A stretch of DNA of 64,000 nucleotides from an uncultured Candidatus Saccharibacteria bacterium (GCA_964548205.1 CAZJPJ010000004.1:21577-85576); one strand, 5' to 3'; positions 7,799-58,300 are shown, counted from the stretch's first letter. The notes: generated from the sequence alone by a model not told the origin. Numbers and translations are program-made.

Positions 7799-8346
7799 TA
7801 TTGCTTTATTTCTTTCTCCTTCTTTAAGGCCATCTCATCTAGCCCCTTAGAAGTTTCATCAATTATTTTTTGCATTTCTTCCTTCAACCTAAACTTCATG
7901 TCTTCGCTTATCTCTCCAGACTTCTCATCATCTTGGATCTGACTCCATTCTTTGTCTCTTACATTTCTTAGAGAAATTTTTGATTCTTCTAGTTTCTTAC
8001 GAGTCAATTTTACAAACTCGTCTCTTCTCTCAGAAGTTAATTCTGGGAAAATTATCCTGACACCCTTTTCATACGGAGAAGAGCCAAGACCCAGGTTTGA
8101 GGTAGCTATAGCCCTTTCGATATCCTTTATGATACTGAGGTCATAAGGTTCTACTCTTATAGTTTTCGGATCTTCAAGGTTTATAGAGGCAAGCTCCTTG
8201 ATGGACATCTTAGACCCGTAAGCATCGACCATAATACTATCGAGCATAGCCGTAGCCGCTCTACCTGTACGTATAGCGGACAATTCTTTTTCAAAAAAAT
8301 CCTTTACTTCTTTTGTTTTGTTTTTAAGATTAGAGAAATCTTTCAT
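7798..8346 (-). CDS. frr: ribosome recycling factor
   Basis: RTGRAATAMLDSIMVDAYG... signature, 182 aa. Confidence 0.9.
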   Translation of the reverse strand: MKDFSNLKNKTKEVKDFFEKELSAIRTGRAATAMLDSIMVDAYGSKMSIKELASINLEDPKTIRVEPYDLSIIKDIERAIATSNLGLGSSPYEKGVRIIFPELTSERRDEFVKLTRKKLEESKISLRNVRDKEWSQIQDDEKSGEISEDMKFRLKEEMQKIIDETSKGLDEMALKKEKEIKQ

Positions 8347-8379
8347 CGGTATTTTTATTATTTTCCCATTCTAAATTAT

Positions 8380-9000
8380 TTATAGATAATAAGCCAGCCA
8401 CTCAAGAATCATCTTATGAGATACGCCTTTTTGTAGAGCGTACTTCAGTCCCAACATGATTTTCTCTAATTCTTTATAATTGCGATCTTTCTTTTCCTTG
8501 AAGTATAACTCAGCCTCTTCAATGAGATTTGGCAAGCTTTCTTTGTCTAGATTTTTCTTATCTCTTATTATCTCTAATCTAGATTTCATATCTTTGTCCC
8601 AGAAATCTGATTTGGTAGGAGCGGCCACAAGATCATGGGTTATCATCCTAGATCTAAGAGTTGGCAGTATAAATTTTTGGTTTTTTATGATGATATAGAG
8701 ATATGTCCACGACCTTATCTCTTCAACTTCTTTCAGCAAGGCATTCTGAGACTCTACAGTCATAGAACTTGTAACAATGACGCACACCTTCCTATCGCCT
8801 ACAGGTTTCAATTTTGCCCACTCTTCAAAAAAACGGGAGTCATCGATGCCAAAATTGACCACATCTATCACCAGAAAATCTGGATTACCGAGAACACTAT
8901 ATCCACTTGCCTCAAGTCTTGATTTTATTTGGCAAAAAGCCTCCTTTCCACCAAACACCAAGTTTGCTTGGTGCATTTTGTCTAAACTCTCAAAAAACAT
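8380..9000 (-). CDS. holB: DNA polymerase III delta-prime-like clamp-loader subunit, N-terminally short
   Basis: QNALLKEVEE ... ILPTLRSRM resembles the AxNALLKxLEEPP and SRC sensor motifs of delta-prime. No Walker A is present. Confidence 0.5.
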   Translation of the reverse strand: MFFESLDKMHQANLVFGGKEAFCQIKSRLEASGYSVLGNPDFLVIDVVNFGIDDSRFFEEWAKLKPVGDRKVCVIVTSSMTVESQNALLKEVEEIRSWTYLYIIIKNQKFILPTLRSRMITHDLVAAPTKSDFWDKDMKSRLEIIRDKKNLDKESLPNLIEEAELYFKEKKDRNYKELEKIMLGLKYALQKGVSHKMILEWLAYYL

Positions 9001-12032: not shown

Positions 12033-12587
12033 ATGGAAAAAGATATTTTACAAAAGGATGATCCTATTCTTAGGTTGACAGCCAAGTCAGTAGAAGTGGA
12101 GGATATAACATCTAGAAAAATACAGACAATAATAAGACGAATGCAAAAAGCTCTCGAATCGCAAGACGATGGAGTTGCCATCGCTGCACCTCAAATAGGA
12201 GAATCTCTTAGGATTTTTGTAGTGTCAAAAAGAGTATTCGATATTCTGGAGGAAGAAAATAGGACAAACAATGAGGATGAAATAGGATCAAAAAACAACA
12301 AAGATATGGGTAAAACTAAGGATTTAGTCTTTATAAATCCAGTCATCATAAAACAATCAAAGAAAAAGATTATGCTTGAAGAGGGTTGTCTTTCTGTAAG
12401 ATGGTTATATGGATTGGTCCAAAGATCTGAAAAAACAACAGTTCGAGCTTATGATGAAATGGGTAAAATTTTTACTTTTGGGGGATCTGGCATCATGTCG
12501 CAGATTTTTCAACACGAGACGGATCACCTAGATGGCGTATTATTTATCGACAAAGCAAAAAATTTGAAAGATATACCACCAGAATAA
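12033..12587 (+). CDS. def: peptide deformylase
   Basis: EGCLSV and QHETDHLDG motifs. Confidence 0.9.
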   Translation: MEKDILQKDDPILRLTAKSVEVEDITSRKIQTIIRRMQKALESQDDGVAIAAPQIGESLRIFVVSKRVFDILEEENRTNNEDEIGSKNNKDMGKTKDLVFINPVIIKQSKKKIMLEEGCLSVRWLYGLVQRSEKTTVRAYDEMGKIFTFGGSGIMSQIFQHETDHLDGVLFIDKAKNLKDIPPE

Positions 12588-19165: not shown

Positions 19166-19411
19166 TTAACTTATTGATTGAGAGGCCAAAAGCAATAGCA
19201 CTGCGGACACTATCAGAAAAACTACGGACAAGAGCAGGAATTTCCTTTCTCCCAACCCGTACTTTCGCCAATGATAGATCATAACTACAGAGACGACCAC
19301 AGTCATGATAGTAAAAAGAGCAAAAACCACCCACTCTAATTCCAAAAAAGTCATGCCAAGTATGATGTTAGAAAAAGTGGAGAGTATTTTATACGGTATA
19401 TCCACTGTCAT
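19166..19411 (-). CDS. small two-TM membrane protein (hypothetical)
   Basis: 81 aa and hydrophobic; fits the gap between dus and the bPH gene. Confidence 0.3.
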   Translation of the reverse strand: MTVDIPYKILSTFSNIILGMTFLELEWVVFALFTIMTVVVSVVMIYHWRKYGLGERKFLLLSVVFLIVSAVLLLLASQSIS

Positions 19412-19414
19412 ATT

Positions 19415-20581
19415 TTAGCACAAACCACTGAGAATTTTTTTGAAATTTATGAGTATAGCTATCGATTCTTCTGGTGTTTTAGAATCCATAAGCATAGAAA
19501 GGTGTTTGTTTTTCTCTTCATAAACTCTTGTATCGCCAATAGACGAGACGGCATTGTTGAGATAAGACTTGAAATGCTTTTTCATCACAGCAAAGGACTT
19601 AAATAGAGAAAGATTTTTATCGAACATTTTGATATGCTCTATTAGAGCATCGATCCTCTCTAGTGCAGAAGCATTTGTGGTGACAAAGAGAAAAGGGTCG
19701 CCAAATATGGCTCTACCTAGCATCACCCCGTCGCAACCTGTCTCATCGGCCAGTTGGTAGGCATGAGGCACGTCTCTCACATCACCATTGCCGAAGATGA
19801 GAGTATGATCTCCCCCACCCGCTTCGCTACGCTCAGCACCCTCCCCTTGATCAGGGGAAGGCCTTGGGACAGAAATGCTCTTCGAAGAGACTTGCGACCT
19901 GCCCGCCTTGCTACGCAAGGCATTGCAGGCGGTGCGCGAAAAATACTCATCCCTTATCTCCACTGCTCTCTTTATCCTCTCCCACCTAGCAGGCACCTTG
20001 GACATTTCTTTGCGTGTGCGAGCATGCAAAGTGATAACTGCTGGTTGTGCTTCTAGTAAAGTCGGGAGCCAGCTTTCGAGCTCATCTTTGTTGTATCCAA
20101 GACGGGTCTTTACTGATACAGGTATCTCACTCTTGCCGTATTTTTTTGCACCATCTCTCACTCCCTTTTTTGCCGCTTCGATCAGCTCACGAGCAAGAGA
20201 AGGGTTCTTGATAAGTGCCGCTCCAGCTCCCTGCTTTTCTACACTTTTGTCCGGACAGCCCATATTGATATCTACTCCATCGAACCCGAGCTCTACTGCA
20301 AGCCTTGCCGTCTTCTCCATATGCTCCGGCTTGCTTGTGAAAAATTGAGCCACTATCGGCCTCTCGATCTCGTTATATTCCAGACCTTTCATCAGTCTTT
20401 TCTTTCCTTCCTCTGGAGCAAGAGCCAATCCATCGGCACTGACAAATTCAGTCCATGTCACATGAGGAATGTCTGAATTTTTTGATATGACATATCTAAA
20501 TGCACTGTCAGTAACATCAGCCATAGGAGCCAAACACAAAATCGGCTTTTTTAGATCCGCCCAGAACCCCAGATTTACCAT
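19415..20581 (-). CDS. tRNA-dihydrouridine synthase (Dus family) with a roughly 40-aa GC-rich in-frame insertion
   Basis: LAPMADVTDSAFR ... GFDGVDINMGCP ... GCDGVMLGRAIFGDPFLF. The insertion SRTACNALRSKAGRSQVSSKSISVPRPSPDQGEGAERSEAGGG is encoded by a GC-rich segment that carries the palindromic repeat. Confidence 0.85.
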   Translation of the reverse strand: MVNLGFWADLKKPILCLAPMADVTDSAFRYVISKNSDIPHVTWTEFVSADGLALAPEEGKKRLMKGLEYNEIERPIVAQFFTSKPEHMEKTARLAVELGFDGVDINMGCPDKSVEKQGAGAALIKNPSLARELIEAAKKGVRDGAKKYGKSEIPVSVKTRLGYNKDELESWLPTLLEAQPAVITLHARTRKEMSKVPARWERIKRAVEIRDEYFSRTACNALRSKAGRSQVSSKSISVPRPSPDQGEGAERSEAGGGDHTLIFGNGDVRDVPHAYQLADETGCDGVMLGRAIFGDPFLFVTTNASALERIDALIEHIKMFDKNLSLFKSFAVMKKHFKSYLNNAVSSIGDTRVYEEKNKHLSMLMDSKTPEESIAILINFKKILSGLC

Positions 20582-20935
20582 TGAGAAAATATAGCATAAA
20601 AAACAGCGCTGGAGATGACAAAATCAGGAAGAAAAGTCACCTCCACTAAGCGCTGCGCGGCTCACACTATGCCCGCAACCGAAGTTAGGATGCGAGCCAC
20701 TGTATGGAAAATAGTAAATCATAAACACGCCAAAATAGCAACAAATAACGCGGGCGGCCTCTCCCAACGAGAAGGCCGCCCATTTTGATGTTAGAGAGCG
20801 ACCCGCCTACTTTGGCGAGTGTGCGGGTCTTCTCCCTAGAGTGACTATATTATACAAAATTTCTTATAAAAACAAAATCCCCATCTGCACAATCGCAGTG
20901 GGGACAACAGAAGAAAGAACAAAAGATCGGGCTTA

Positions 20936-20969
20936 CCCGCACACCCAGAAGACGATCTGGGTGTGCGGG
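20936..20969 (-). terminator. strong intrinsic terminator (14 bp perfect stem) downstream of a minus-strand sORF
   Basis: cccgcacacccaga-agacga-tctgggtgtgcggg, followed on the minus strand by a T-rich run. Confidence 0.55.
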
Positions 20970-21028
20970 CTGCCCTTCGCGGAGAGCGGCCGGCTAGCTG
21001 GTAGCTAGCCTGCCGCGCCGGCGCCCGG

Positions 21029-21211
21029 TCAGCCGGGGCACCGGTCCGGAGCGCCGATGCGCACGCGGCGGGCGGCGGCCTGGTACGGGCCGAAAAGAAT
21101 GGGGTGGATCCGAGTGGTCGCGGCGCCCGCGGTCTTGCGGGTGCGGCCGGCGAAAGAAAAAACTGTTATCGATGTACCCATGGTTTTTGCCATGGGCGGC
21201 GAATTGGGCAT
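21029..21211 (-). CDS. candidate small GC-rich ORF (60 aa) with a strong Shine-Dalgarno site; function unknown, may not be coding
   Basis: AAAGGAGGG, then 6 nt, then ATG. Product MPNSPPMAKTMGTSITVFSFAGRTRKTAGAATTRIHPILFGPYQAAARRVRIGAPDRCPG. Ends before the 20936 hairpin. Confidence 0.25.
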   Translation of the reverse strand: MPNSPPMAKTMGTSITVFSFAGRTRKTAGAATTRIHPILFGPYQAAARRVRIGAPDRCPG

Positions 21212-21360
21212 CTTCTGCCCTCCTTTCTTTTTGCGCCAGTACCTAAAACTGGCAATCATTTTTCAACTACCAACGAACGAAATTACCGTTATATCATAGC
21301 ACAACCATAGAAAGTGTCAAGGGTTTTACATGCTTTCCTGCATTTTGTCTAGCCCTTGTA

Positions 21361-21392
21361 CCAAAAAACGGCTTTACGAAGCCGTTTTTTGG
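21361..21392. terminator. bidirectional terminator-like hairpin (A-run, 12 bp stem, T-run)
   Basis: ccaaaaaacggc-tttacgaa-gccgttttttgg. Confidence 0.45.
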
Positions 21393-21539
21393 TAGTGCAA
21401 AAATATTTTGTAAAATTTTATATCAAAACAGAGGCAGTTTTGGTATGTATTTAGGCACAGTTTTTTATATAAAAAAGAAATCCGGGCGCCCTGGGTAGAG
21501 GGGCCCGGAATCGGGTTGTTCGGCGGTGCCTGGAGACTC

Positions 21540-21641
21540 CTAGGCGCCGTCGAAAGTGTTCGAGTCCACCGCGGCCTTCATGCCGACGATCTTCATGCCG
21601 GGAATCATCACTTCGTTGACTTCGCAATGATCGGTTCGCAT
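21540..21641 (-). CDS. candidate small ORF (33 aa) followed by a terminator hairpin; function unknown
   Basis: AGGAGA, then 12 nt, then ATG. Product MRTDHCEVNEVMIPGMKIVGMKAAVDSNTFDGA. The hairpin at 21481..21509 plus a T-run sits immediately downstream. Confidence 0.2.
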   Translation of the reverse strand: MRTDHCEVNEVMIPGMKIVGMKAAVDSNTFDGA

Positions 21642-22024
21642 GATTTGTTGGTTTCTCCTGTTGTTGAGGTGACACCCAGCCCCCGAGGGCTGGGTGAGAA
21701 CGGTGGTGCTGTTCTTTTTTTAGAATAGCAAATATAAAAAATCCTGCAAGTATTAAAACAAAAAGTGTGGATAAGTAAGAAAATAAAAAAGTATAAAAAG
21801 TTTTAGGCCCGTGCGCTCCCTCTTAGTGGATTACGCACGGGCCTCTGTTTGGACGCGCCAGGGTAAAGATCTTGCGCAGGTGGCGAACCATCTCTGGTTC
21901 TTTCTGGGGAAGGTGCTTCGAGGGCTTACTTCCTAAATTTATACCACCTGCTTTTATTTAATAAAATAATAAAAATAATATAGAAAAAGAAAATTTTGTC
22001 AACTACAAAAGTGTATAAAATTTA

Positions 22025-22064
22025 CCCCTCCCCTGATCAAGGGGAGGGGGTTGGGGGTGGGGTT
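22025..22064. repeat. GC-rich palindromic repeat element, copy A (CCCCTCCCCTGATCAAGGGGAGGGG plus a G-tract), lying just 3' of the ClpC-like gene and probably acting as its terminator
   Basis: Perfect 9 bp arms around TGATCAA. A near-identical copy lies at 29741..29784. Confidence 0.7.
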
Positions 22065-22065
22065 C

Positions 22066-24486
22066 CTAAAGTTCTTCGACCTTCACCTCAATTTTCCCTC
22101 CACTTTTCACTTCCCCACTGATTATCTTCTTTGCCACAGCGTCCTCGACGATAGTTTTGACGGCTCTATTTATAGAGCGAGCTCCAAACTTCGGATCGGC
22201 CCCCTTTTCTACAAGATAGCGAACAAGTTCATCTGTTATGACTAATTCTATCTCTTTACTTACGAGTTGCTCTTTCAGTTTTTCTAGCTCGAGCCTAGCG
22301 ATAGTAGCGAGGTTCTCGTTACCAAGTGGCTCGAACACAACCAGTCCATCGAAGCGGTTTAGAAGCTCTGGTTTAAATATTTTTTGTTCCACAATTTTAT
22401 TTATTATTTCATCTTTTTCTTCTGCCAAATTTTTACCCTCACTCTCCGCTTTCCATATAAGGTCACTGCCTGCGTTTGAAGTAGCTATGATGATGAGGTT
22501 ACGACAATTTACCTTATTACCAGAAGCATCGCTAAAAAATCCTTCATCCAGTATTTGTAAGAATAGATCATGGACTTCCCTAGAAGCCTTTTCAAATTCA
22601 TCAAGGAGCAATACTCCATACGGGTTATCTTTGACTTTGCTCGAGAGTATCCCAGGTTTACCATCAGAAAAGTTCCCTATAAGACGAGAGAGTGCATCAA
22701 AACCACTATATTCGGACATGTCTATTCTTACCATCTTGTCTTCGCTCCCAAAATACACTAGAGCCAAAGTCTTTGCAGTCTCTGTCTTACCTACACCGGT
22801 TGGGCCAAAGAAAAGGAAGGAGCCTATCGGTCTATTTGGATTGCCGAGTCCTGACCTTGCTCTCCGTACCGCGCTCGACACTGTATCTACGGCAAATTTC
22901 TGACCGACTACCCTCTCCCCAAGCAAAGATTCTAGTCTATTTATCTTCTCCATCTCTTCTTCTCCGACTTTACCGATCTTTATACCAGTCTTTTCTGACA
23001 CATAAGCCACCACATCTTCTTCTTTCAAAATCTGGCCTTTCACAAGCTTTGTACTCAATACCTCATCGAGAAGATCTAGAGCTTTTTCTGGCATCTCACC
23101 GGTAGTGATATGACGCACAGCAGAGAGCACTATCTGCTTTATCGCTCCGAAGCTAACCAATATCTTCTTACCATCCTCTATTGATCTTACTTTTTCTATT
23201 ATTACAGGCAGCGAAGAATCTTCATGCACTTCAACCGGAAGGACTCTTTCAAATTTTTCTGAAAGTTCTGCACTTGTCTCCAAAAAGAAATGGAAATCAG
23301 CCGATGTAGAATGAGCAACAATGTTCAGTGAAGACGAATTGAGATACGGAGAAAGTAGTGACGCTACATTTACACCGCTCTGTTTGGCGCTGACCAAAAA
23401 AGATGGTAAGTCTCTGATATATAGGATTATATTACCTGCATTTGATGCTTGAGTTAGGAGTTTCAATATTTCAGATTCTATGTCAGCTTTATTCTTAAAG
23501 GTTGCTAAAAGCGCAGACCAATCCAACTCTATGATTTCCTTATGTTCGATATTAGGCAACGCAATCCCAAGCCTTATCTTGCGCAAAAGCCTAGCTACAA
23601 TATCTCTAGAGACATCCTCGCTATTGCTTACTATTACTGCATTGGCCTCCTCACTCCTTTCTAAAATACCTTCGAGGATAGAGACTTCGTGTTCTCTGTA
23701 CCCATTTTCAAGATTGATAAGTGACAAATCTATAGTATTTCCAAAACTTCTGCCATATTTACCAAGCTCAAATGAAATACCGTAGCTCCAAGATTTACCG
23801 ATAGAGGGGATACTACCGAGCTTCTCCCTACCCCAAAACCTTTCTTCCCGTCTCTCTCGTTCTATCGATTCCGCTTCCATCAGAGCTGCTCCAAGAAATT
23901 CTTTTTTTCCTACATTGTGAGTATTCAAAAACTGAGCAAAGACTTTATCCAATTCATATACCGCACTAAGATAGCTGACAAGATCTGATTGTTCGTTTTC
24001 TGTATTGACTGAACCAGAAATGATAGGGGTACGCGCTCCGTCGACAAAACCTTGCCATTCATCCTTTTCGACACCACTTCTTTCAAGCACTCTTTTGCCA
24101 GTCTTACTTTCAAATATGCCCCTCGTTATATCTATCTCACTTGTGTGGTAAAGGATCTCAGATAGTGCAAAGTCGATCCGTCTATTTTCTTTGAGGTTGC
24201 GTTCTACCACTCTCGAATATATCCCTTCACCTTTCATAGAATGGTAGAAAAATTCTATAGAAGCGAAAATCAGATAGAAAAATACAAACAAGAAAAACAA
24301 TGCGTCAGCAAAACTAAAATCTAGGGGCAATACATCTATAGATGCAAACGACAATATGAAGGAGAAAAGTGCCAAAGTAGCCGAGAGCTTCCTAAAAACA
24401 GCCCGCAAAAAACGTGGCAAAAACCTGTCTATAGTTAGGACCAAGGCATGAGGTCTGCTTATTTCCTTTATTTTACTGAAAGTCAT
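22066..24486 (-). CDS. Clp/Hsp100-family AAA+ ATPase, ClpC-like, with an N-terminal transmembrane region and a degenerate first AAA domain
   Basis: D2 is intact: FFGPTGVGKTETAKTLA (Walker A), VLLLDEFEKA (Walker B), IIIATSN, LLNRFD. In D1, Walker A and B are replaced (SNSEDVSR and ILYIRD). The N-terminal 90 aa are hydrophobic. Confidence 0.75.
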   Translation of the reverse strand: MTFSKIKEISRPHALVLTIDRFLPRFLRAVFRKLSATLALFSFILSFASIDVLPLDFSFADALFFLFVFFYLIFASIEFFYHSMKGEGIYSRVVERNLKENRRIDFALSEILYHTSEIDITRGIFESKTGKRVLERSGVEKDEWQGFVDGARTPIISGSVNTENEQSDLVSYLSAVYELDKVFAQFLNTHNVGKKEFLGAALMEAESIERERREERFWGREKLGSIPSIGKSWSYGISFELGKYGRSFGNTIDLSLINLENGYREHEVSILEGILERSEEANAVIVSNSEDVSRDIVARLLRKIRLGIALPNIEHKEIIELDWSALLATFKNKADIESEILKLLTQASNAGNIILYIRDLPSFLVSAKQSGVNVASLLSPYLNSSSLNIVAHSTSADFHFFLETSAELSEKFERVLPVEVHEDSSLPVIIEKVRSIEDGKKILVSFGAIKQIVLSAVRHITTGEMPEKALDLLDEVLSTKLVKGQILKEEDVVAYVSEKTGIKIGKVGEEEMEKINRLESLLGERVVGQKFAVDTVSSAVRRARSGLGNPNRPIGSFLFFGPTGVGKTETAKTLALVYFGSEDKMVRIDMSEYSGFDALSRLIGNFSDGKPGILSSKVKDNPYGVLLLDEFEKASREVHDLFLQILDEGFFSDASGNKVNCRNLIIIATSNAGSDLIWKAESEGKNLAEEKDEIINKIVEQKIFKPELLNRFDGLVVFEPLGNENLATIARLELEKLKEQLVSKEIELVITDELVRYLVEKGADPKFGARSINRAVKTIVEDAVAKKIISGEVKSGGKIEVKVEEL

Positions 24487-28869: not shown

Positions 28870-29234
28870 AACCGATTCCGCCCCACCTTGAGCAATGCCA
28901 ACCAGCAGAGCTCAAGGCGGGGCTTTTCGTATTATAAATTTTCCACAAAACAAATCTAAACACCGATCACGAAGTGCCACAAAGTATTCGTGTCCCCATT
29001 ATTTTGCTACGATCGTAGTAAAATAATGTAGCCAAGTGTAAAGAATTCAAGATGTTCAGATATCAAAGGCGCCCTTTGGGATGGTTTGTCTATATCTTTT
29101 TTTATAATAAAATTAATAAGGAGGTCCAACATGGACCATGGCTAAAAGGTTAAATCAAAAGGGGAATAACCCCCAACTTTGCCCCGCCACTCACTTGTAC
29201 GATGAGAGGCGGTTTTTGTATACAAAATCAGAAT

Positions 29235-29264
29235 TTGACAATATATAGGCGACTATGCTATAAT
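29235..29264 (+). promoter_or_regulatory. consensus sigma70-type promoter (TTGACA, 18-nt spacer, TATAAT)
   Basis: ttgaca-atatataggcgactatgc-tataat. Confidence 0.55.
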
Positions 29265-29283
29265 GCAGTTTAGGAGGCACACC

Positions 29284-29397
29284 ATGAACGATGATCCGTT
29301 TGTGATTGTGTTAGTTCTAGGAGGCTTCCTTTGTCTTATCGTCGCAAGACGACAAATAAAGGAAGTCAGAAAAATTTTTGGAGGAAAGAAAAAATGA
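29284..29397 (+). CDS. 37-aa single-TM small protein, translationally coupled (ATGA) to the downstream Flp-like gene
   Basis: AGGAGG, 6 nt, ATG. Product MNDDPFVIVLVLGGFLCLIVARRQIKEVRKIFGGKKK. Confidence 0.4.
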   Translation: MNDDPFVIVLVLGGFLCLIVARRQIKEVRKIFGGKKK

Positions 29398-29633
29398 GGA
29401 GAAAAAATGCTGCCCGGAGGGGTAGCAACTTGTTGGAGTACGCGGTGGTGGTGGGATTCGGAATTGTGGCCATCTATATGGCCTTCCGCGAGCCGATCAA
29501 GCTCGCAGTCCTAAACCTCATCAATGCGCGCGTAACTGCGTGCATTGCAAGCAACCCCACAGACAATACATGGCGGGAGCAATGCCACAAAGATGGCATG
29601 AATTGGAGGAGGATAATCGTAGACAGGTTGTAA
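29394..29633 (+). CDS. Flp/Fap-family pilin-like protein (type IVb / Tad pilin-like prepilin)
   Basis: MRRKNAARRG|SNLLEYAVVVGFGIVAIYMAF fits the Flp G-x4-EY processing motif and hydrophobic core; 79 aa. Confidence 0.55.
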   Translation: MRRKNAARRGSNLLEYAVVVGFGIVAIYMAFREPIKLAVLNLINARVTACIASNPTDNTWREQCHKDGMNWRRIIVDRL

Positions 29634-29678
29634 AATGCTATTGCTATAATACTCTCTCTCCTTCTCCCCTAACACCCC

Positions 29679-29716
29679 CGCGGCGCAAGCAGTTTAGCGC
29701 CGCGTGGTATTTTTTT
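29679..29716 (+). terminator. intrinsic terminator
   Basis: ccgcggcgc-aagcagttta-gcgccgcg followed by tggtattttttt. Confidence 0.6.
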
Positions 29717-29740
29717 AATTAAGTAATTTCAATTTCTCTT

Positions 29741-29784
29741 CCCCCCTCTCCTGATCAAGGGGAGGGGTTGGGGGGTGGGGTTTT
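29741..29784. repeat. GC-rich palindromic repeat element, copy B
   Basis: ccccctctcctgatcaaggggaggggttggggggtggggtttt; near-identical to copy A at 22025. Confidence 0.7.
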
Positions 29785-29821
29785 GCATTTTCTGCCCTTA
29801 TTCTTTATCCTGTAATAAATA
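29780..29821 (+). repeat. left copy of a roughly 42 bp direct repeat flanking the mazF-like cassette
   Basis: gttttgcattttctgcccttattctttatcctgtaataaata matches 30354..30396 at 38 of 42 positions. Confidence 0.6.
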
Positions 29822-29846
29822 CAGTACAGGGTTGCTATAATATTTT

Positions 29847-36332: not shown

Positions 36333-37379
36333 GTGAAAAATAAAGGAGGTAAAACAAATAATATAGGAGAAAAGATAAAAGTGCTAGTGATACTTGGCCC
36401 CACAGCGAGTGGCAAGAGCGACTTGGCTGTATCTTTGGCGCGCAAATATGGCGGCGAAGTGGTAAGTGCAGATTCTAGACAGGTGTACAAAGGGTTAGAC
36501 ATTGGCACGGGGAAAATAACAAAAAGAGAAATGCAAGGTGTGCCCCACCATCTGCTTGATGTAGCTTCGCCAAAGCGACAATTTTCTGCTCACGACTTTG
36601 TAGAGCTTGCACAAAAAGCTATTGAAGACATACACGCGCGAGGTAAATTGCCCATCATCTGCGGTGGTACAGGGTTTTATATTAGTGCCCTACTTGGAGA
36701 GACAAAACTTTCTGACGTGCCGATGAATAAAAACCTCCGCAAAGAGCTGGAGAAAAAATCTGCACGAGAGTTGTTTGAGATTCTTCAAAATCTTGATGCA
36801 AAGAGAAGTAAAACAATCGATAAGTATAATCCGCACAGGCTGATAAGAGCAATAGAAATAGCCAAAGCTTCTGCAAAACATAAGCAAGCATCAAGTCCTA
36901 AAAAACAAGTTCCAAACAAATATGAGGTATGCAAAATAGGAGTTGCACCAATGAAAAAAATATCCCACCCCCCTACCCCCTCCCTTACCTTAAGGAAGGG
37001 GGCGAAGAGAGAGAGTTATATCATTGATCAAACAGAATTAAAAAGAAAAATAAATGAGCGTATAGATCGATGGTTCAAACTTGGACTAATAAATGAGGTG
37101 AAAAATCTTCACAAGAAAAGGATTTCGTGGAAACGAATGTCAGATATAGGCTTAGAATACAGGCTAGTTGCACAATACTTGCAAAAGAAACTAACAAAAG
37201 ATCAACTTACAGAAAGAATGCGGCTTGAAACTTGGCACTACGCCAAACGCCAGATGACGTGGTTCAAGAGACCTGTCCACCACGCTTCGCGAAGCGATGC
37301 ATGCGGAGATAGACAAATACATTGGTTCAAACCTGACCAAGTTACAAAGATCCAAAAGCTAGTTTCAAAATTTATTTAG
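36333..37379 (+). CDS. miaA: tRNA dimethylallyltransferase
   Basis: VLVILGPTASGKSDLAVSLA...VVSADSRQVYKGLDIGTGKIT. Contains an in-frame GC-rich insertion (ISHPPTPSLTLRKGAKRES). Confidence 0.85.
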   Translation: MKNKGGKTNNIGEKIKVLVILGPTASGKSDLAVSLARKYGGEVVSADSRQVYKGLDIGTGKITKREMQGVPHHLLDVASPKRQFSAHDFVELAQKAIEDIHARGKLPIICGGTGFYISALLGETKLSDVPMNKNLRKELEKKSARELFEILQNLDAKRSKTIDKYNPHRLIRAIEIAKASAKHKQASSPKKQVPNKYEVCKIGVAPMKKISHPPTPSLTLRKGAKRESYIIDQTELKRKINERIDRWFKLGLINEVKNLHKKRISWKRMSDIGLEYRLVAQYLQKKLTKDQLTERMRLETWHYAKRQMTWFKRPVHHASRSDACGDRQIHWFKPDQVTKIQKLVSKFI

Positions 37380-52980: not shown

Positions 52981-53296
52981 GTCCGCTCAGAGGGAATCGG
53001 TCACGAGTTCCTTCGCCAAGCTCAGGACTCTCGACCCCAGCTCGCCCGTCTCGCTTTGCTCGACATGGCTCCGCTTTTCGATTCCTCACGCAAGCAAAGC
53101 AGTTTGCTTGCTTTCGCGTCCAAACCGCTTCGCAACTTGTCCGCTCAGAGGGAATCGGTCACGAGTTCCTTCGCCAAGCTCAGGACTCTCGACCCCAGCT
53201 CGCCCGTCTCGCTTTGCTCGACATGGCTCCGCTTTTCGATTCCTCACGCAAGCAAAGCAGTTTGCTTGCTTTCGCGTCCAAACCGCTTCGCAACTT
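52981..53296. repeat. two tandem 158 bp repeat units, each beginning (in plus-strand view) with a 19-nt copy of the tRNA-Lys 3' end
   Basis: Units at 52981..53138 and 53139..53296 are essentially identical. Each starts gtccgctcagagggaatcg, the 3' end of tRNA-Lys. Each contains the hairpin gcaagcaaagcagtttgcttgc. Confidence 0.75.
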
Positions 53297-54800: not shown

Positions 54801-55041
54801 GCAAACTATCCTTCAACCGGGATTTTATATACCGTCTGCCCCAAGCAGTTTTAAGATACTTTTCTCTTTTTAGAGAATCTCTGCTACTTGAACAGGCTTC
54901 ATAATATACAAGTCTCCATGGCCCGCGGTTTTTTGTAGCAATAGACTTATTGTCGTTATGTTCTTTAAGTCTTCGCTTCAGATCAGAAGTATATCCGATA
55001 TAAAACTGCTTTGGGCCTTTGATTATGTATACGTAGTGCAT
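54760..55041 (-). CDS. GIY-YIG nuclease family protein (UPF0213/YhbQ-like), paralog 2; its 3' end overlaps the predicted 5' end of rnpB
   Basis: MHYVYIIKGPKQFYIGYTSDLKRRLKEHN. Confidence 0.65.
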   Translation of the reverse strand: MHYVYIIKGPKQFYIGYTSDLKRRLKEHNDNKSIATKNRGPWRLVYYEACSSSRDSLKREKYLKTAWGRRYIKSRLKDSLQLSHVEESPNTGI

Positions 55042-55177
55042 AATTTACAATTATCTCACGTGGCTGTTGCACGAAATATGGCCTGAAATATAGGTTATCA
55101 CACATTTCCCCAAAATTCAACATTTTGCTTGCATTTTCTATCATAATATGCTATAATAAAAGTAGGAGGTGGTCATA

Positions 55178-55579
55178 ATGAAGATCACATTATTGCTCGT
55201 TTTCACGCTGGTCGCGGTGACCAGCTCCACTTTGCTGGCCCAAGGCCGGCAGGCCGGCTCGGTGGCCATCGCCGAGCACATCAGTTCAAACCTTGTGCTC
55301 GACTCAGTGAAGTGCCTGGAGCGAGCAACAAATAACAATATTAGGGCTGGAGAGAAAAATCCGGCCGAAAAGGCATCCAAGTTTTGTCAAACCTCAGTCA
55401 ACGCTGAAGTTAAGAGGAGTACGGGGGTTGCCAACGAGGCCGCAGACGCCACAAAGGCATCGGCCCCTCGGGGAGTAGTTCTTCCCGGGGGAATAGGACT
55501 TGGTTGGGGGGGTTACTACGGGGGAGGAGGCTTCATCCTCCGCAGGCCGATCGGTCGGCGGCAGATAGTCCGGCGGTAA
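55178..55579 (+). CDS. secreted hypothetical protein with a Gly/aromatic-rich C-terminal tail (GGIGLGWGGYYGGGGFILRRPIGRRQIVRR); GC-elevated
   Basis: AGGAGGTG Shine-Dalgarno site, 6 nt, ATG; Sec signal MKITLLLVFTLVAVTSSTLLAQG. Confidence 0.5.
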   Translation: MKITLLLVFTLVAVTSSTLLAQGRQAGSVAIAEHISSNLVLDSVKCLERATNNNIRAGEKNPAEKASKFCQTSVNAEVKRSTGVANEAADATKASAPRGVVLPGGIGLGWGGYYGGGGFILRRPIGRRQIVRR

Positions 55580-55588
55580 GACCGCCAA

Positions 55589-55630
55589 TCCCGTCGAGAT
55601 GCACACAGCACCTCGACGGGATTTTTATTT
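55589..55630 (+). terminator. intrinsic terminator
   Basis: atcccgtcgag-atgcacacagcacc-tcgacgggat followed by ttttattt. Confidence 0.55.
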
Positions 55631-55639
55631 ACAAAAACC

Positions 55640-55668
55640 TTGCATTTTCCACCCTTTTGTGATATAAT
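55640..55668 (+). promoter_or_regulatory. sigma70-type promoter (TTGCAT, 17-nt spacer, TGtGATATAAT extended -10)
   Basis: ttgcat-tttccacccttttgtga-tataat. Confidence 0.5.
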
Positions 55669-55715
55669 AGAGGGTGGAAGTAGATCTTCTACAAATCTAT
55701 TTAGAGGCAACGAAA

Positions 55716-56852
55716 ATGACGGAAAAGAATGAAGAAAAGATCCAAGAAAAAGGGGTGGGTGGCCCCAACCCCCCACCGGAATACCAGTGGATAGTTACGG
55801 TCCCCCAAGAGTGGTTCAGACTGGTTCTTAGGGGAGAGGACCTTGACTCAATTATCCACGGAGCGCGTGGATACAGAGTCAACGAGGAATTGGAATTTGA
55901 AAAAATCCCACCGGGATTTGAAGACGCTTACGACCTATCACCTAGACACCTCTTCCGCCAAGTAACTGGGCGGGAATTCGTCGGGATTCCCAAGCTCAAG
56001 AGGACCGGTATATACGGAAAAAAATTCCGTTGGGCCGCGTTTTTTCCAAGAACCGAAGGAGGTGGTGAGAACGGTAAACCGGTATACACGCCGGGCTGGC
56101 ACGACCAAGAAATCGTGCGGGCATTTCCTCTCGTATCGAGTTACCCTCTAACCTTTACAAATATCGACGTACAAGGTCGAGAGGTGACAACTGGCGACCC
56201 GTCGATCGTCCAGATCGCGATGACGGTCATCATCCGAGTCAGGATGCTAAGGCCACGGATCGCACTGATGCAAAATACCGACTGGCTCGGAAACGGCGTG
56301 TCCCCCTATCTCCAAGGTCGCATTGGTGACTATATGAGGACTGGAGGAGATGACACAAATATTATGTCCTATGACCGTGTCATACGTCGTGATAGATTGA
56401 ACGGTAGAGGAAGTCGGTTTCGCAACACCTTTCTCGGCACGTTGATCAATGGCGGAAAGCAAGTCGAGCGAAGCAGTTTGAGACTCTCCTTACTTGCACA
56501 GTATGGAGTGGACCTCATCGACGTGCAAGTCGTCGATGTGCAAACGAACGAAGAGTTCGAGAAGAAGCTGAGAGCACTAGCCGACGCCGATATCGATGCC
56601 GCAATCATCGAGCGGCAGGCAAGAGCCGAAGCCCAGAAGCGAAAGCTTCAGGCTGAGGCCGAGGGAGAGTATATTCGCCAAACATCAGCCGCCATTCAGG
56701 ACAGACTCCGCCGGTTGATGGAAAGCATGGGAGGAGACGCGGCTAGCGTAAGGGCGATCGAATATGCCTATGCCCTGCGCGACTCCAAACTCACCACCCT
56801 TGCCGGGGCCGGCGTCAGCCTCGTCGTAGGCCCAGACGGCACCATCCGCTAG
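55716..56852 (+). CDS. SPFH/Band-7-domain protein with a roughly 160-aa N-terminal extension and no predicted TM; GC-elevated
   Basis: ...YGVDLIDVQVVDVQTNEEFEKKLRALADADIDAAIIERQARAEAQKRKLQAEAEGEY... then ...VRAIEYAYALRDSKLTTL...VVGPDG, which fits the SPFH core plus the coiled-coil pattern of HflK/C, stomatin and flotillin. Confidence 0.55.
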   Translation: MTEKNEEKIQEKGVGGPNPPPEYQWIVTVPQEWFRLVLRGEDLDSIIHGARGYRVNEELEFEKIPPGFEDAYDLSPRHLFRQVTGREFVGIPKLKRTGIYGKKFRWAAFFPRTEGGGENGKPVYTPGWHDQEIVRAFPLVSSYPLTFTNIDVQGREVTTGDPSIVQIAMTVIIRVRMLRPRIALMQNTDWLGNGVSPYLQGRIGDYMRTGGDDTNIMSYDRVIRRDRLNGRGSRFRNTFLGTLINGGKQVERSSLRLSLLAQYGVDLIDVQVVDVQTNEEFEKKLRALADADIDAAIIERQARAEAQKRKLQAEAEGEYIRQTSAAIQDRLRRLMESMGGDAASVRAIEYAYALRDSKLTTLAGAGVSLVVGPDGTIR

Positions 56853-56994
56853 ACCCAAGCCCTGTTTAGGGCAAACCAACCCCCAAATGCATCGCTTTCA
56901 AGGCATAGCGTGAGGGGGTTGCTTTTTTATACGAAATGTGCTATAATATAAATAGGTCTGTGTACAATAACAATTGCATAAGGAGACGAAGGAA

Positions 56995-58227
56995 ATGAAC
57001 GCAATAAATAGTGGAAATGGCCGCTTGATTAGCGGCCAGACGATGGCCCAGTCTTTCTGGGCCCAGTTCTGGGCCTGGATCAAGTATAGTTGGGCGACAA
57101 GTGGGTGGTGGAAAAAAATCACCCTCGTCCTGCGGGCAATCTGGGCACTCCTGGTCGCAGGAGTACGGTTTCGGATCTTATCAGCAGGGCTCGCCGGATT
57201 GGCCGCTTTGGCCATCATCCTCGGGGTAGCATACTGGTTCGTGATGGGTGGTTACAAGTGGTTATTTAGCTCCACTATGTGGATGCTGTTTGCCACTGCC
57301 ATCTTCATCGGCCTATGGTGGCACCTTCGGAAGTACAAGGATGAGGATTTCGTAAAAATTGCGGGGGGAAAGTTCGTAGCCAAACCCCTGCGGTCAGCTC
57401 CGTTATGGGCAATCGCTGTCATCTGGGCAATCTGGGTCGCCGTTCAGGCGATAATTCTGGGTTGGCAAGGTGTGGTCGCGATCTACAAGCTCGCCGCAGA
57501 CTGGTTCTTCAACTTTTCTGGGGGGCTCGCTCTCTGGAAAGTCGCTCTGGGTTTACTCCTGCTAGCCGGCATTGTGTGGGTAATAAGCATACTCGTCCGG
57601 TGGGCAAGAAAGTCTAGAGAGGAGAACGACAAAACCTTTGGACTCGGCTCGGCCCTCGTAGTCGGCATGGTGGCAGTAGCAATACTGAACACCATACTGT
57701 TTCTCGAAGCGTATCTATGGATCGCTTTCGCAGAGAACCACACGGCTGGGTTCCTGGGAACCAACCTCTCTCTCTGGCTTGCTGTAAGCGCATGGCTGGT
57801 CAGAGACAAGGAGGGCAACCGCCCCGCTTGGTCTGCCAATGCTTCAAATATCCTATTTGCTCTCGCTTTAATCGGCGTCAGCATAGCGGGATGGGAGGCA
57901 TTCCGGCAAATCGAGGAACCGATTACTTACGAGGCGGTTCCTGGAGGGGTACTGGCAAAGGTTCTTGCTCCAATCGACGATTGGAGTAAAAACCTATCCG
58001 TCCGAGGAAACAAGTTCAACCTTGAAACCGTCCCCGGACGGAAGTTCAAGGTGAAATTCCTCGGATACGAGGTTAAGGACGGGAGAAGGATTCCTTTGGT
58101 CAAAGTTTTCGTGGTCAACGACAATGACCACGATTTCGAGACTGATGGAGTGATTCAAGAAATACTTGTTCAATCACTCGATGGGAGACCGATGAGAGTT
58201 CCAGTCGAGATGATGTCGCGGCGATAA
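56995..58227 (+). CDS. Trp-rich polytopic membrane protein (about 8 TM) with a roughly 110-aa C-terminal soluble domain; GC-elevated; function unknown
   Basis: AAGGAGA Shine-Dalgarno site; TATAAT at 56943; TM helices rich in W (WAQFWAWIKYSW..., LWAIAVIWAIWVAV...). Confidence 0.45.
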   Translation: MNAINSGNGRLISGQTMAQSFWAQFWAWIKYSWATSGWWKKITLVLRAIWALLVAGVRFRILSAGLAGLAALAIILGVAYWFVMGGYKWLFSSTMWMLFATAIFIGLWWHLRKYKDEDFVKIAGGKFVAKPLRSAPLWAIAVIWAIWVAVQAIILGWQGVVAIYKLAADWFFNFSGGLALWKVALGLLLLAGIVWVISILVRWARKSREENDKTFGLGSALVVGMVAVAILNTILFLEAYLWIAFAENHTAGFLGTNLSLWLAVSAWLVRDKEGNRPAWSANASNILFALALIGVSIAGWEAFRQIEEPITYEAVPGGVLAKVLAPIDDWSKNLSVRGNKFNLETVPGRKFKVKFLGYEVKDGRRIPLVKVFVVNDNDHDFETDGVIQEILVQSLDGRPMRVPVEMMSRR

Positions 58228-58300
58228 ATTTCCACCCTTCTCCTTATGCACACCCCCGCTTGGTTTCGGCCATGCGGGGGTGATTTTTTATAAAGCTTTT

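Follow-up and report, generated by a model that had tools for sequence, protein, structure and literature searches.

A candidate small RNA/mini-ORF locus with conserved expression signals and a drifting peptide in the variable spacer between ClpC-like and dus genes

What kind of sequence fills the 1484 nt between the tRNA-dihydrouridine synthase gene dus and a ClpB/ClpC-like AAA+ gene (ClpC in the following) is the question raised by positions 20582–22065 of a 64-kb stretch of DNA from an uncultured Candidatus Saccharibacteria bacterium (GCA_964548205.1, CAZJPJ010000004.1:21577-85576; hereafter the window, with 41% GC overall). This island is the longest gap between open reading frames (ORFs) of at least 110 amino acids in the window, the next longest gaps reaching ~1.2 kb and having tRNA genes within them, and the Pfam matches of both flanking genes bear out a preliminary description of the sequence, which had singled out the interval as the longest non-coding stretch of the window. 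The same description had offered three candidates for its content, each of which turns out to be right in part at best: a novel or large non-coding RNA, a cluster of genes for small proteins or for precursors of ribosomally synthesized and post-translationally modified peptides (RiPPs), or a graveyard of palindromic elements. It had also suggested that conservation be sought in relatives, and seven distinct spacers of related loci indeed have, in the equivalent place, a counterpart of the middle third of the island (here called unit A), in which promoter and translation-start signals are kept, but the product is not. On balance, it is probable that unit A is a lineage-specific small RNA/mini-ORF locus in a variable spacer, where selection would act on the RNA or on its expression and not on the peptide.

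The island alternates spacers of 25–40% GC with blocks that reach 76–78% GC (20950–21150). The whole window has 23 perfect hairpins of 9 bp or more, and five of them fall within the island, whereas dinucleotide shuffles of the island average 0.055 and do not exceed 1; four minus-strand segments have fold z-scores of −4.9 to −6.2. Promoter-like sites number six, against 1.8 expected, and the minus strand carries the two that score 11/12. Hairpins are trailed by T-runs on this strand and not on the plus strand, which points to a string of short one-strand units and not to a single RNA. The alternation of GC-rich hairpin blocks with AT-rich spacers had been recognized correctly, whereas the individual hairpins need some revision: the perfect stem at 20936–20969 stands; the hairpin placed at 21361–21392 is perfect and slightly longer, but it is an AT-rich bidirectional terminator; the stem at 21481–21509, reported as perfect, is imperfect and bulged; and 21805–21842 does form a hairpin, but with a short stem and a wide loop. 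Read along the minus strand, the order of elements is ClpC stop codon, palindromic repeat, unit 1, unit 2, bidirectional terminator, unit A (which is unit 3), unit 4, and dus. Unit A and the two flanking genes comprise the following features, listed in that direction.

22066–24486, minus strand: ClpB/ClpC-like AAA+ gene, upstream flank of the island (Pfam AAA_2, ClpB_D2-small, AAA_lid_9)
About 21394–20870, minus strand: unit A, carrying a 60-codon ORF (sequence, ORF and fold analysis)
21359–21394, minus strand: AT-rich bidirectional terminator with a perfect 16-bp stem, 38% GC, within the profile match 21407–21291
21342–21348, minus strand: ACAAAAT box, identical in all seven aligned sequences
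21293–21320, minus strand: predicted unit A promoter TTGACA-N16-(TG)TATGAT, scoring 11/12, with a spacer that is also conserved in relatives
21218–21226, minus strand: Shine-Dalgarno (SD) sequence AAAGGAGGG, 7 nt 5′ of the ATG of the 60-codon ORF
21029–21211, minus strand: the 60-codon small ORF of unit A (sORF60)
20986–21046, minus strand: GC-rich palindromic core just past the sORF60 stop, with the CCGGGCGCCGGCGCGGCAGGCTAG motif and the hairpin 20986–21016
20936–20969, minus strand: first unit A terminator, a perfect 14-bp GC-rich hairpin with a T-rich tail
20879–20903, minus strand: second unit A terminator hairpin (CCCCACTGCGATTGTGCAGATGGGG), then a T-run
19415–20581, minus strand: dus, downstream flank of the island (Pfam Dus, E=2.7e-51)

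The promoter block is laid out as ACAAAAT-N31-TTGACA...TGTGCTATACT, and its ACAAAAT box may be an UP element or an operator. In the window, the leader between promoter and ORF is ~80 nt long and holds a hairpin (leaders are about 50–80 nt across the units compared below), and the TGA stop codon of sORF60 lies in the loop of the second hairpin within the 20986–21046 core. A further small ORF, of 33 codons (sORF33), belongs to unit 2, and both small ORFs are as they had been described, being SD-preceded and having hairpins and T-runs behind them on the minus strand.

The evidence for unit A as an entity comes from related loci. The nearest Dus proteins are 59–64% identical to that of the window and the nearest ClpC-like proteins 50–55% (about 90 full-length relatives), and many of the nearest relatives of both are labelled Candidatus Zambryskibacteria or Paceibacterota. 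The searched collections contain no close relative for nucleotide alignment (best Dus 64%, best ClpC 55%); ClpC scans of genomes and metagenomes return only relatives of 39% identity or less, and viral contigs, scanned with P0134 (the L097 orthologue of ClpC), yield none. The relatives compared here are contigs that encode ClpC or Dus orthologues and are referred to by locus number (L). Six of them (L096, L097, L099, L100, L104, and L105) share the gene order SerRS, ~267-aa gene, ~131-aa gene, ClpC-like gene, spacer, dus, and the ClpC–dus spacer has the following lengths.

L097 and L098: 333 nt
L100 to L102: 328 nt
L099: 358 nt
L096: 433 nt
L104: 505 nt
L105: 725 nt
This window: 1484 nt
L047: 3.9 kb, including sigma-factor and two-component genes
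L103: ~120 nt

The spacer is never trivial where the ClpC gene is full-length, and a counterpart of unit A lies between ClpC and dus in seven distinct relative spacers, i.e., in all those of at least 328 nt. All seven open alike, with the ClpC stop codon, a terminator hairpin, ACAAAAT and, ~30 nt later, the promoter motif. This 28-nt motif, TTGACA-N3-TTT-N-T-N-G-N-TGTG-N-TAT-NN-T, occurs a single time in the 64-kb window (21293–21320, minus strand; 0.04 expected) and once in each of the nine unit-bearing relative loci (L047 to L105), while at 0–3 substitutions it is not found in ~95 other loci and has no match in viral contigs. A profile built only from six relatives matches the window at 21407–21291 on the minus strand over its full length with E=2.9e-16, which indicates that the hairpin at 21359–21394 is the former ClpC terminator, the counterpart of the terminator that follows ClpC in the relatives (AATGGCT..AAGCCATTT; also AATGGCT..TAAGCCATTT). 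The second-best match of this 5′ profile (E=0.0024) is the same palindromic terminator on the opposite strand, and the profile finds one copy of unit A only in the window. Pairwise blastn between the 5′ part of the window unit and its relatives gives E=3e-8 to 1e-2, and with L100 the leader and the initial 19 nt of the ORF are aligned as well (ATGCCCAATTCGCCGCCCA vs ATGACCTATTCCCCGCCCA).

Past the promoter, eight distinct unit A sequences, the window copy included, can be set side by side. An AAGGAG-like SD, a start codon 5–9 nt further on and an ORF of at least 12 codons are present in all eight, as compared with 2–5% of the shuffles of each. Similarly, the bodies of all eight have 49–60% GC, and every copy ends in a strong terminator, which lies 20–60 nt before dus in L096, L097, L099, L100, and L104; a profile of the relatives' 3′ terminators fits generic terminators and is non-discriminating. 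A GC-rich CGCCGGCG motif is found 3–9 nt past the stop codon in six of the eight units and inside the ORF in two (L105 and L099), and the CCGGGCGCCGGCGCGGCAGGCTAG block of the window is 73% identical over 41 nt to CCCGGCGCCGACGCGGCCGGCTAG of L105 (5670–5710), which is coding there. The peptides, of 13, 19, 32, 37, 37, 40, 41, and 60 amino acids, have sequences that cannot be aligned. Even between L100 and L105, whose ClpC proteins are 85% identical, the insertions and deletions in unit A come in lengths not divisible by three, and the start codon lies in a different place. Sequence, length and frame, as a conserved small protein would keep them, are not kept here, whereas SD and start codon as signals of initiation are. 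The unusual property of unit A is therefore that its predicted promoter and start signals persist but its product does not, and since expression signals, GC-rich composition and hairpins are kept without the peptide, selection would act on the RNA or on the act of expression.

This arrangement resembles dual-function small RNAs, for example, SgrS/SgrT, RNAIII/hld, and SR1/SR1P. They also have their own promoter and intrinsic terminator and an SD-led mini-ORF in a structured RNA, all of which are predicted for unit A, and in them as well the RNA features are kept while the peptide is fast-evolving or dispensable. Unlike these RNAs, unit A has no conserved seed region, its bodies cannot be aligned, and it is known from sequence alone.

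In the explanation that we favor, the island would be a mosaic row of four or five short minus-strand units, each consisting of a sigma-70-type promoter, a GC-rich hairpin body and an intrinsic terminator, and unit A would be this genome's copy of a clade-wide unit of Zambryskibacteria-like Paceibacterota. Unit A would be a small RNA gene, possibly translated as well, and the stacked terminators would keep its strong promoter from reading into dus, the mRNA of which would start at its own ATG; the transcription and translation of the unit, and its role as an RNA or as an insulator, are what we infer from these signals. The other parts of the island may have been added to this core in this lineage, with the palindromic repeat and units 1 and 2 (~670 nt) inserted between the ClpC stop codon and the former ClpC terminator and with unit 4 placed between unit A and dus. 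In L105, too, unit A and dus are separated by an additional promoter-body-terminator unit, so that expansion of the ClpC–dus spacer is not unique to this genome. A more specific version, which we put forward tentatively and consider rather unlikely, is that unit A represents an undescribed clade-wide regulatory RNA, in which ribosome loading and termination beside a GC-rich palindrome would serve as a switch or sensor. The promoter would then be controlled, probably through the ACAAAAT box and the conserved spacer, the ORF of unit A would be one of the few SD-led frames in a largely leaderless or SD-less genome, and the ClpC–dus spacer would be a place where such modules collect.

Several observations weigh against a selected small RNA/mini-ORF locus and the mosaic built around it. 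RNAalifold on the eight unit A bodies yields 0 pairs, and neither a consensus structure nor covariation could be derived, because the bodies do not align, and the sense strand folds no better than the antisense strand, so that the hairpins alone fix neither an RNA-level function nor a strand. Unit A is also dispensable, as L103 is without it and a truncated ClpC adjoins dus in L048 and L049. In these two loci (L048 747–2000 and L049 1742–2992), which represent one relative lineage, the ClpC-like gene encodes the N-terminal 417 amino acids, 38% identical to residues 1–414 of the window ClpC; the gap to dus is 30 nt, and the AAA+ half and unit A are both missing. Eight sequences are, in addition, a small number for such a comparison, and the conservation of SD and start codon could also reflect a regulatory leader ORF or a small protein that evolves fast. 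For units 1 and 4, which could be non-functional, neither the relative loci nor the rest of the window offers any match, and a profile of three leaders of DPBB-domain genes, with which unit 2 is compared below, ranks the unit 2 site first at E=0.75.

One alternative, which is unlikely in our judgment, takes the small ORFs as real small-protein genes, either fast-evolving, bacteriocin-like or for RiPP precursors, and the hairpins as their terminators. The retention of SD and start codon in eight of eight unit A copies in an SD-poor genome argues for it, as do the GC contents of sORF33 at codon positions 1/2/3 (0.53/0.35/0.79), which show a coding-like periodicity, and the presence of other SD-led small ORFs in the window, for example at 29284–29633. 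However, neither small ORF has a credible homologue. Among 5.8 billion proteins, no homologue shares words with sORF60; viral contigs contain no relative of it, and an exact gene call for it is not on record. The only match of sORF33 among 1.8 billion representatives (E=1.4e-7), an unrelated, eukaryote-like tandem-repeat protein of 519 amino acids, is repeat-driven and was rejected, and a degenerate-codon scan for its peptide MIPGMKIVGM finds nothing in metagenome or viral contigs. Pfam gives nothing for ten island ORFs on both strands except a chance match at E=0.21, and the peptides of the relatives differ in length (13–60 amino acids), sequence and frame. RiPP and bacteriocin clusters are similar to the island in having several small SD-led ORFs on one strand, each with a terminator, but they differ from it in their conserved leader or core peptides and in the modification, export and immunity genes beside them. 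Neither RiPP maturation genes (radical-SAM, YcaO, LanM-type) nor transporters occur within about 8 kb, where the neighbors are HPF, VanY, an MBL-fold protein, DUF2177, TspO, bPH, Dus, the ClpC-like protein, SerRS, DprA and a few small ORFs without Pfam match. The earlier proposal of a small-protein or RiPP cluster fails on the points that allowed a test, namely homologues, reading frames and maturation enzymes.

A second alternative sees in unit A a cis-acting leader of dus, that is, an upstream ORF with a terminator attenuator, in which translation of the ORF would decide on read-through. Two features at the start of dus bear on it.

20604–20655, minus strand: terminator hairpin adjoining the dus promoter, then TTTTTT, at the position of the unit terminator in relatives (sequence, fold, alignment)
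20582–20603, minus strand: T-run and predicted dus promoter TTTTTTATGCTATATT, with the −10 TATATT at 20588–20593 after TGc

Leader-peptide transcription attenuators of the trpL, hisL, and pheL type are like unit A in that its ORF ends before a GC-rich hairpin and a terminator and in that dus lies directly downstream in most relatives. The short distance to dus in the five loci listed above, the attenuator-like placement of the stop codon 3–9 nt before the GC-rich hairpin in six of the eight units, and the retention of the promoter without its product all agree with such a role. We nevertheless regard it as quite improbable, as dus has a predicted promoter of its own and looks leaderless. It has no SD, and its TG-extended −10 ends exactly 6 nt before the ATG; a read-through RNA would offer only an internal AUG without SD. 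The window, L097, L099, L100, L104, and L105 share a TTTTTTATGYTARRAT block whose end is 6 nt from the dus ATG; in all of them, the T-run of the unit terminator passes directly into this block, the last six bases of which fit a −10 hexamer after TGn. Overall, a TGnTAnnAT element stands 6 nt before the ATG in six of the seven dus-adjacent spacers, and L096 has a weaker TATAAC without TG at the same spacing. The dus mRNA is on these grounds probably leaderless, which lowers the support for the dus-leader role. Moreover, unit A is away from dus in L047 (in which a sigma-factor gene and ~3.4 kb of other genes come after it), in L105 (by the extra unit) and in the window, where three further terminators and unit 4 lie between them. 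Unlike the known attenuators, unit A has no regulatory codon run, no regulatory codon recurs among the peptides, and no antiterminator pairing was demonstrated, a systematic search for pairings not having been part of the analysis.

The starts of other genes in the window have similar features. An SD is present in only two of 42 larger genes, and 12 of the 42 have a TAnnnT that ends 5–6 nt before the start, ten of these at exactly 6 nt and seven with TGn, where the background rate of TAnnnT is 8% for any of four offsets. Examples are the starts of the genes at 12033, 13787 (minus), 14179 (minus), 15861 (minus), 19415 (minus), 24488 (minus), 29847, and 61005 (minus). This pattern suggests that many mRNAs of the organism are leaderless and that its translation makes little use of SD sequences.

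A third alternative concerns the parts of the island outside unit A as much as unit A itself, and those parts contain the following features.

22025–22065, minus strand: palindromic element AACCCCACCCCCAACCCCCTCCCCTTGATCAGGGGAGGGG, GC-rich, ~40 nt, which is the predicted ClpC terminator here
21843–22002, minus strand: unit 1, an orphan, with the predicted promoter TTGACA-16-TATTAT at 21975–22002 (11/12); fold z-score −4.9
Within 21843–22002, minus strand: unit 1 body of ~130 nt, with the closing stem GCAGGTGG..CCACCTGC
21805–21842, minus strand: unit 1 terminator, a 10-bp GC stem with an 18-nt loop
21703–21752, minus strand: predicted unit 2 promoter TTGCAG-N17-TGcTATTCT and first transcribed bases (blastn to L097)
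21673–21696, minus strand: unit 2 leader hairpin, a perfect 10-bp GC stem
21540–21641, minus strand: sORF33, the 33-codon ORF of unit 2, with GGAG 13 nt before its ATG
21481–21509, minus strand: unit 2 terminator, an imperfect GC stem with a bulge, then TTTCTTTTTTAT
20656–20853, minus strand: unit 4, an orphan, with the TG-extended −10 TATAAT at 20848–20853; fold z-score −5.9
20792–20838 and 20752–20781, minus strand: hairpin and terminator-like hairpin of unit 4, with a further stem-loop

According to this alternative, the island is mostly or entirely non-functional debris, made of orphaned promoters, leaders and terminators in a rearrangement-prone spacer. For units 1, 2, and 4 taken alone, this is quite plausible, as units 1 and 4 are without counterparts, the promoter of unit 2 is similar to one that precedes a DPBB-domain gene, a gene absent from the window, and the ClpC–dus interval varies in relatives between about 30 nt and 3.9 kb, with differing contents. 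The bodies of unit A, which cannot be aligned, would fit debris too. For the island as a whole, debris is distinctly unlikely: neutral drift toward AT would be expected at 41% GC, yet the bodies remain at 49–60% GC in eight lineages, and the promoter block, SD and start codon of unit A are kept at about 55% ClpC identity, whereas the flanking spacer is not. Protein-coding remnants were not detected in the island either, since tblastn of the DPBB, PAP2, sigma-factor, and other cargo proteins of L047 against it gives no gene remnants, and a DPBB-domain gene or its remnant was not found in the window.

Unit 2 may be a promoter and leader of the DPBB-gene type that was borrowed or orphaned and would here drive the 33-codon ORF only. 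Its promoter with the first transcribed bases (21703–21752) and L097 9322–9371, upstream of a DPBB_1-domain gene, share 78% identity over 50 nt (E=2e-4), and unit 2 has a TTCTC..AGC block and a AACAACAGGAG SD block in common with the DPBB leaders of L096, L097, and L099. Because the profile match mentioned above has an E-value of 0.75 and the case comes mainly from one pairwise match, this link is a lead and not a result. The unit 2 terminator weakly matches the terminator profile of the relatives (E=0.022). The possibility that the unit 2 promoter is a copy of the unit A promoter was rejected, as its edit distance of 7–8 from the relatives' promoters is equaled by random sites. The DPBB_1 genes themselves (L096 7520–7745, minus; L097 9318–9455; L099 9736–9870, minus) have a common 5′ leader, laid out as AGTAGAAGCAC..AAAGAGAAGG-variable hairpin-GCAGATTTCTCCCTTAGCTT..ACAGGAG, which finds no match in Rfam and may be a cis-regulatory RNA motif.

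It is very improbable that the island is a graveyard of the palindromic element or horizontally acquired mobile or foreign GC-rich DNA. In favor of such an origin, the palindromic element has three copies in the window (22025–22065, 29743, and a degenerate one at 19838 inside dus), compared with 0 in shuffles, the GC content of the island is far above the genome average, and the third codon position of sORF33 has a GC content of 0.79. However, the island holds a single copy, a self-comparison of the island reveals no repeats beyond this element, and its other hairpins are unique, so that the graveyard envisaged at the outset reduces to one palindrome. The most GC-rich block is part of the vertically conserved unit A. 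The island has no blastn match in phage records and one chance-level match of 45 nt in plasmid records, and the palindromic element has no match in viral contigs. Like the repetitive extragenic palindromic sequences and bacterial interspersed mosaic elements (REP/BIME), the palindrome at 22025–22065 is GC-rich, recurs in the window and in related genomes, stands at gene ends and doubles as a terminator; unlike the situation with REP/BIME, it covers no more than ~40 of the island's 1484 nt, the remaining hairpins occur once each, and the element is tolerated in-frame inside dus.

The palindrome has the consensus CCCCTCYCC-loop-GGRGAGGGG with a C-rich flank and recurs in this genome and in related Paceibacterota. 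Its sites are 19838–19862, 22025–22065, 29743–29783, and 36964–37001 in the window and 139–207 in L097, and it also lies inside dus in the relatives L096 (5923–5961) and L103 (6276–6391). In at least four lineages, it is found in-frame in the same variable Dus loop, just after RAVEIR(D/N), where it encodes ..PSPDQGEG.. or ..PSPLQGEG.., and this partly explains the Dus lengths of 309–458 amino acids.

Despite the high content of stable structure, the island is hardly credible as one large structured non-coding RNA or as a divergent transfer-messenger RNA (tmRNA), signal recognition particle RNA, 6S RNA, or RNase P RNA, as internal predicted promoters and at least five minus-strand terminators split the region, no consensus structure could be derived, and neither Rfam at threshold nor ARAGORN (which finds no tmRNA in the window) recognizes any of them. 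At the gathering threshold, Rfam yields eight tRNA matches in the whole window and none in 20582–22065. With E≤10, the best score in the island is 29 bits against a threshold of 46 and is centered on the AT-rich terminator, and with E≤5 the unit gives only sub-threshold small RNA matches in six relative loci. The first reading of the island could not match tmRNA, signal recognition particle RNA, 6S or RNase P motifs in it, and the Rfam scan, which stays below threshold throughout the island, agrees. A replication origin was considered and rejected, there being a single perfect DnaA box (21766–21774) and no cluster, with box counts in the window near expectation and a GC skew that follows gene orientation. 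A TIGR-Tas array was rejected as well, since the island lacks a periodic tandem array and no Tas gene was seen in its vicinity. In the literature on small RNAs and RNA motifs of Patescibacteria and Parcubacteria, nothing relevant was found.

In Patescibacteria, genomes are very small, and known regulators or non-coding RNAs are few. As a small RNA/mini-ORF locus, with its position, promoter and start signal kept and its product drifting, unit A would be a concrete candidate for lineage-specific RNA-level regulation in this group. It also presents a defined target for metatranscriptomics, with one predicted transcription start, one terminator and one mini-ORF to be looked for. Initiation that is leaderless or poor in SD sequences, as suggested for this organism, would affect gene calling and the interpretation of small ORFs in such organisms. 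If the island were debris instead, GC-rich hairpin islands in AT-rich genomes would not be safely assumed to be structured RNAs.

Other parts of the window and of the related loci also deserve mention. The second-longest gene-poor gap (28870–29846) has a layout similar to that of the island, with a promoter (TTGACA..TGcTATAAT), the strong SD sequences AAGGAGG at 29118 and AGGAGG at 29272, a 37-aa hydrophobic small ORF (29284–29397) that overlaps a 79-aa ORF (29394–29633), a GC hairpin terminator at ~29677–29706 and a copy of the palindromic element, all without Pfam matches. The 79-aa ORF was considered as a Flp-type pilin and rejected for want of Pfam support. Between tRNA-Cys and tRNA-Lys lie two blocks of ~105 nt and ~60% GC (52988–53092 and 53146–53250), neither of which is a tRNA by ARAGORN or Rfam. 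The hairpin GCAAGCAAAGCAGTTTGCTTGC stands behind both in identical form, which suggests a tandem duplication. The region ~55000–58300 has 51–53% GC, compared with 41% overall, and contains ORFs that start with GTG or TTG, one of which encodes an SPFH/Band 7 protein while the others have no Pfam match; it may have been horizontally acquired. Among the relatives, L104 has a group I intron match at 8085–8424 (60 bits, E=8.5e-13) that ends at the end of the locus. Finally, an 81-aa hydrophobic-rich ORF (19166–19411, minus strand) lies between dus and the bPH gene and overlaps a longer ORF call for bPH; it is a conserved small gene, L048 having in the equivalent place a 76-aa gene with 31% identity to it (E=1.5e-5).

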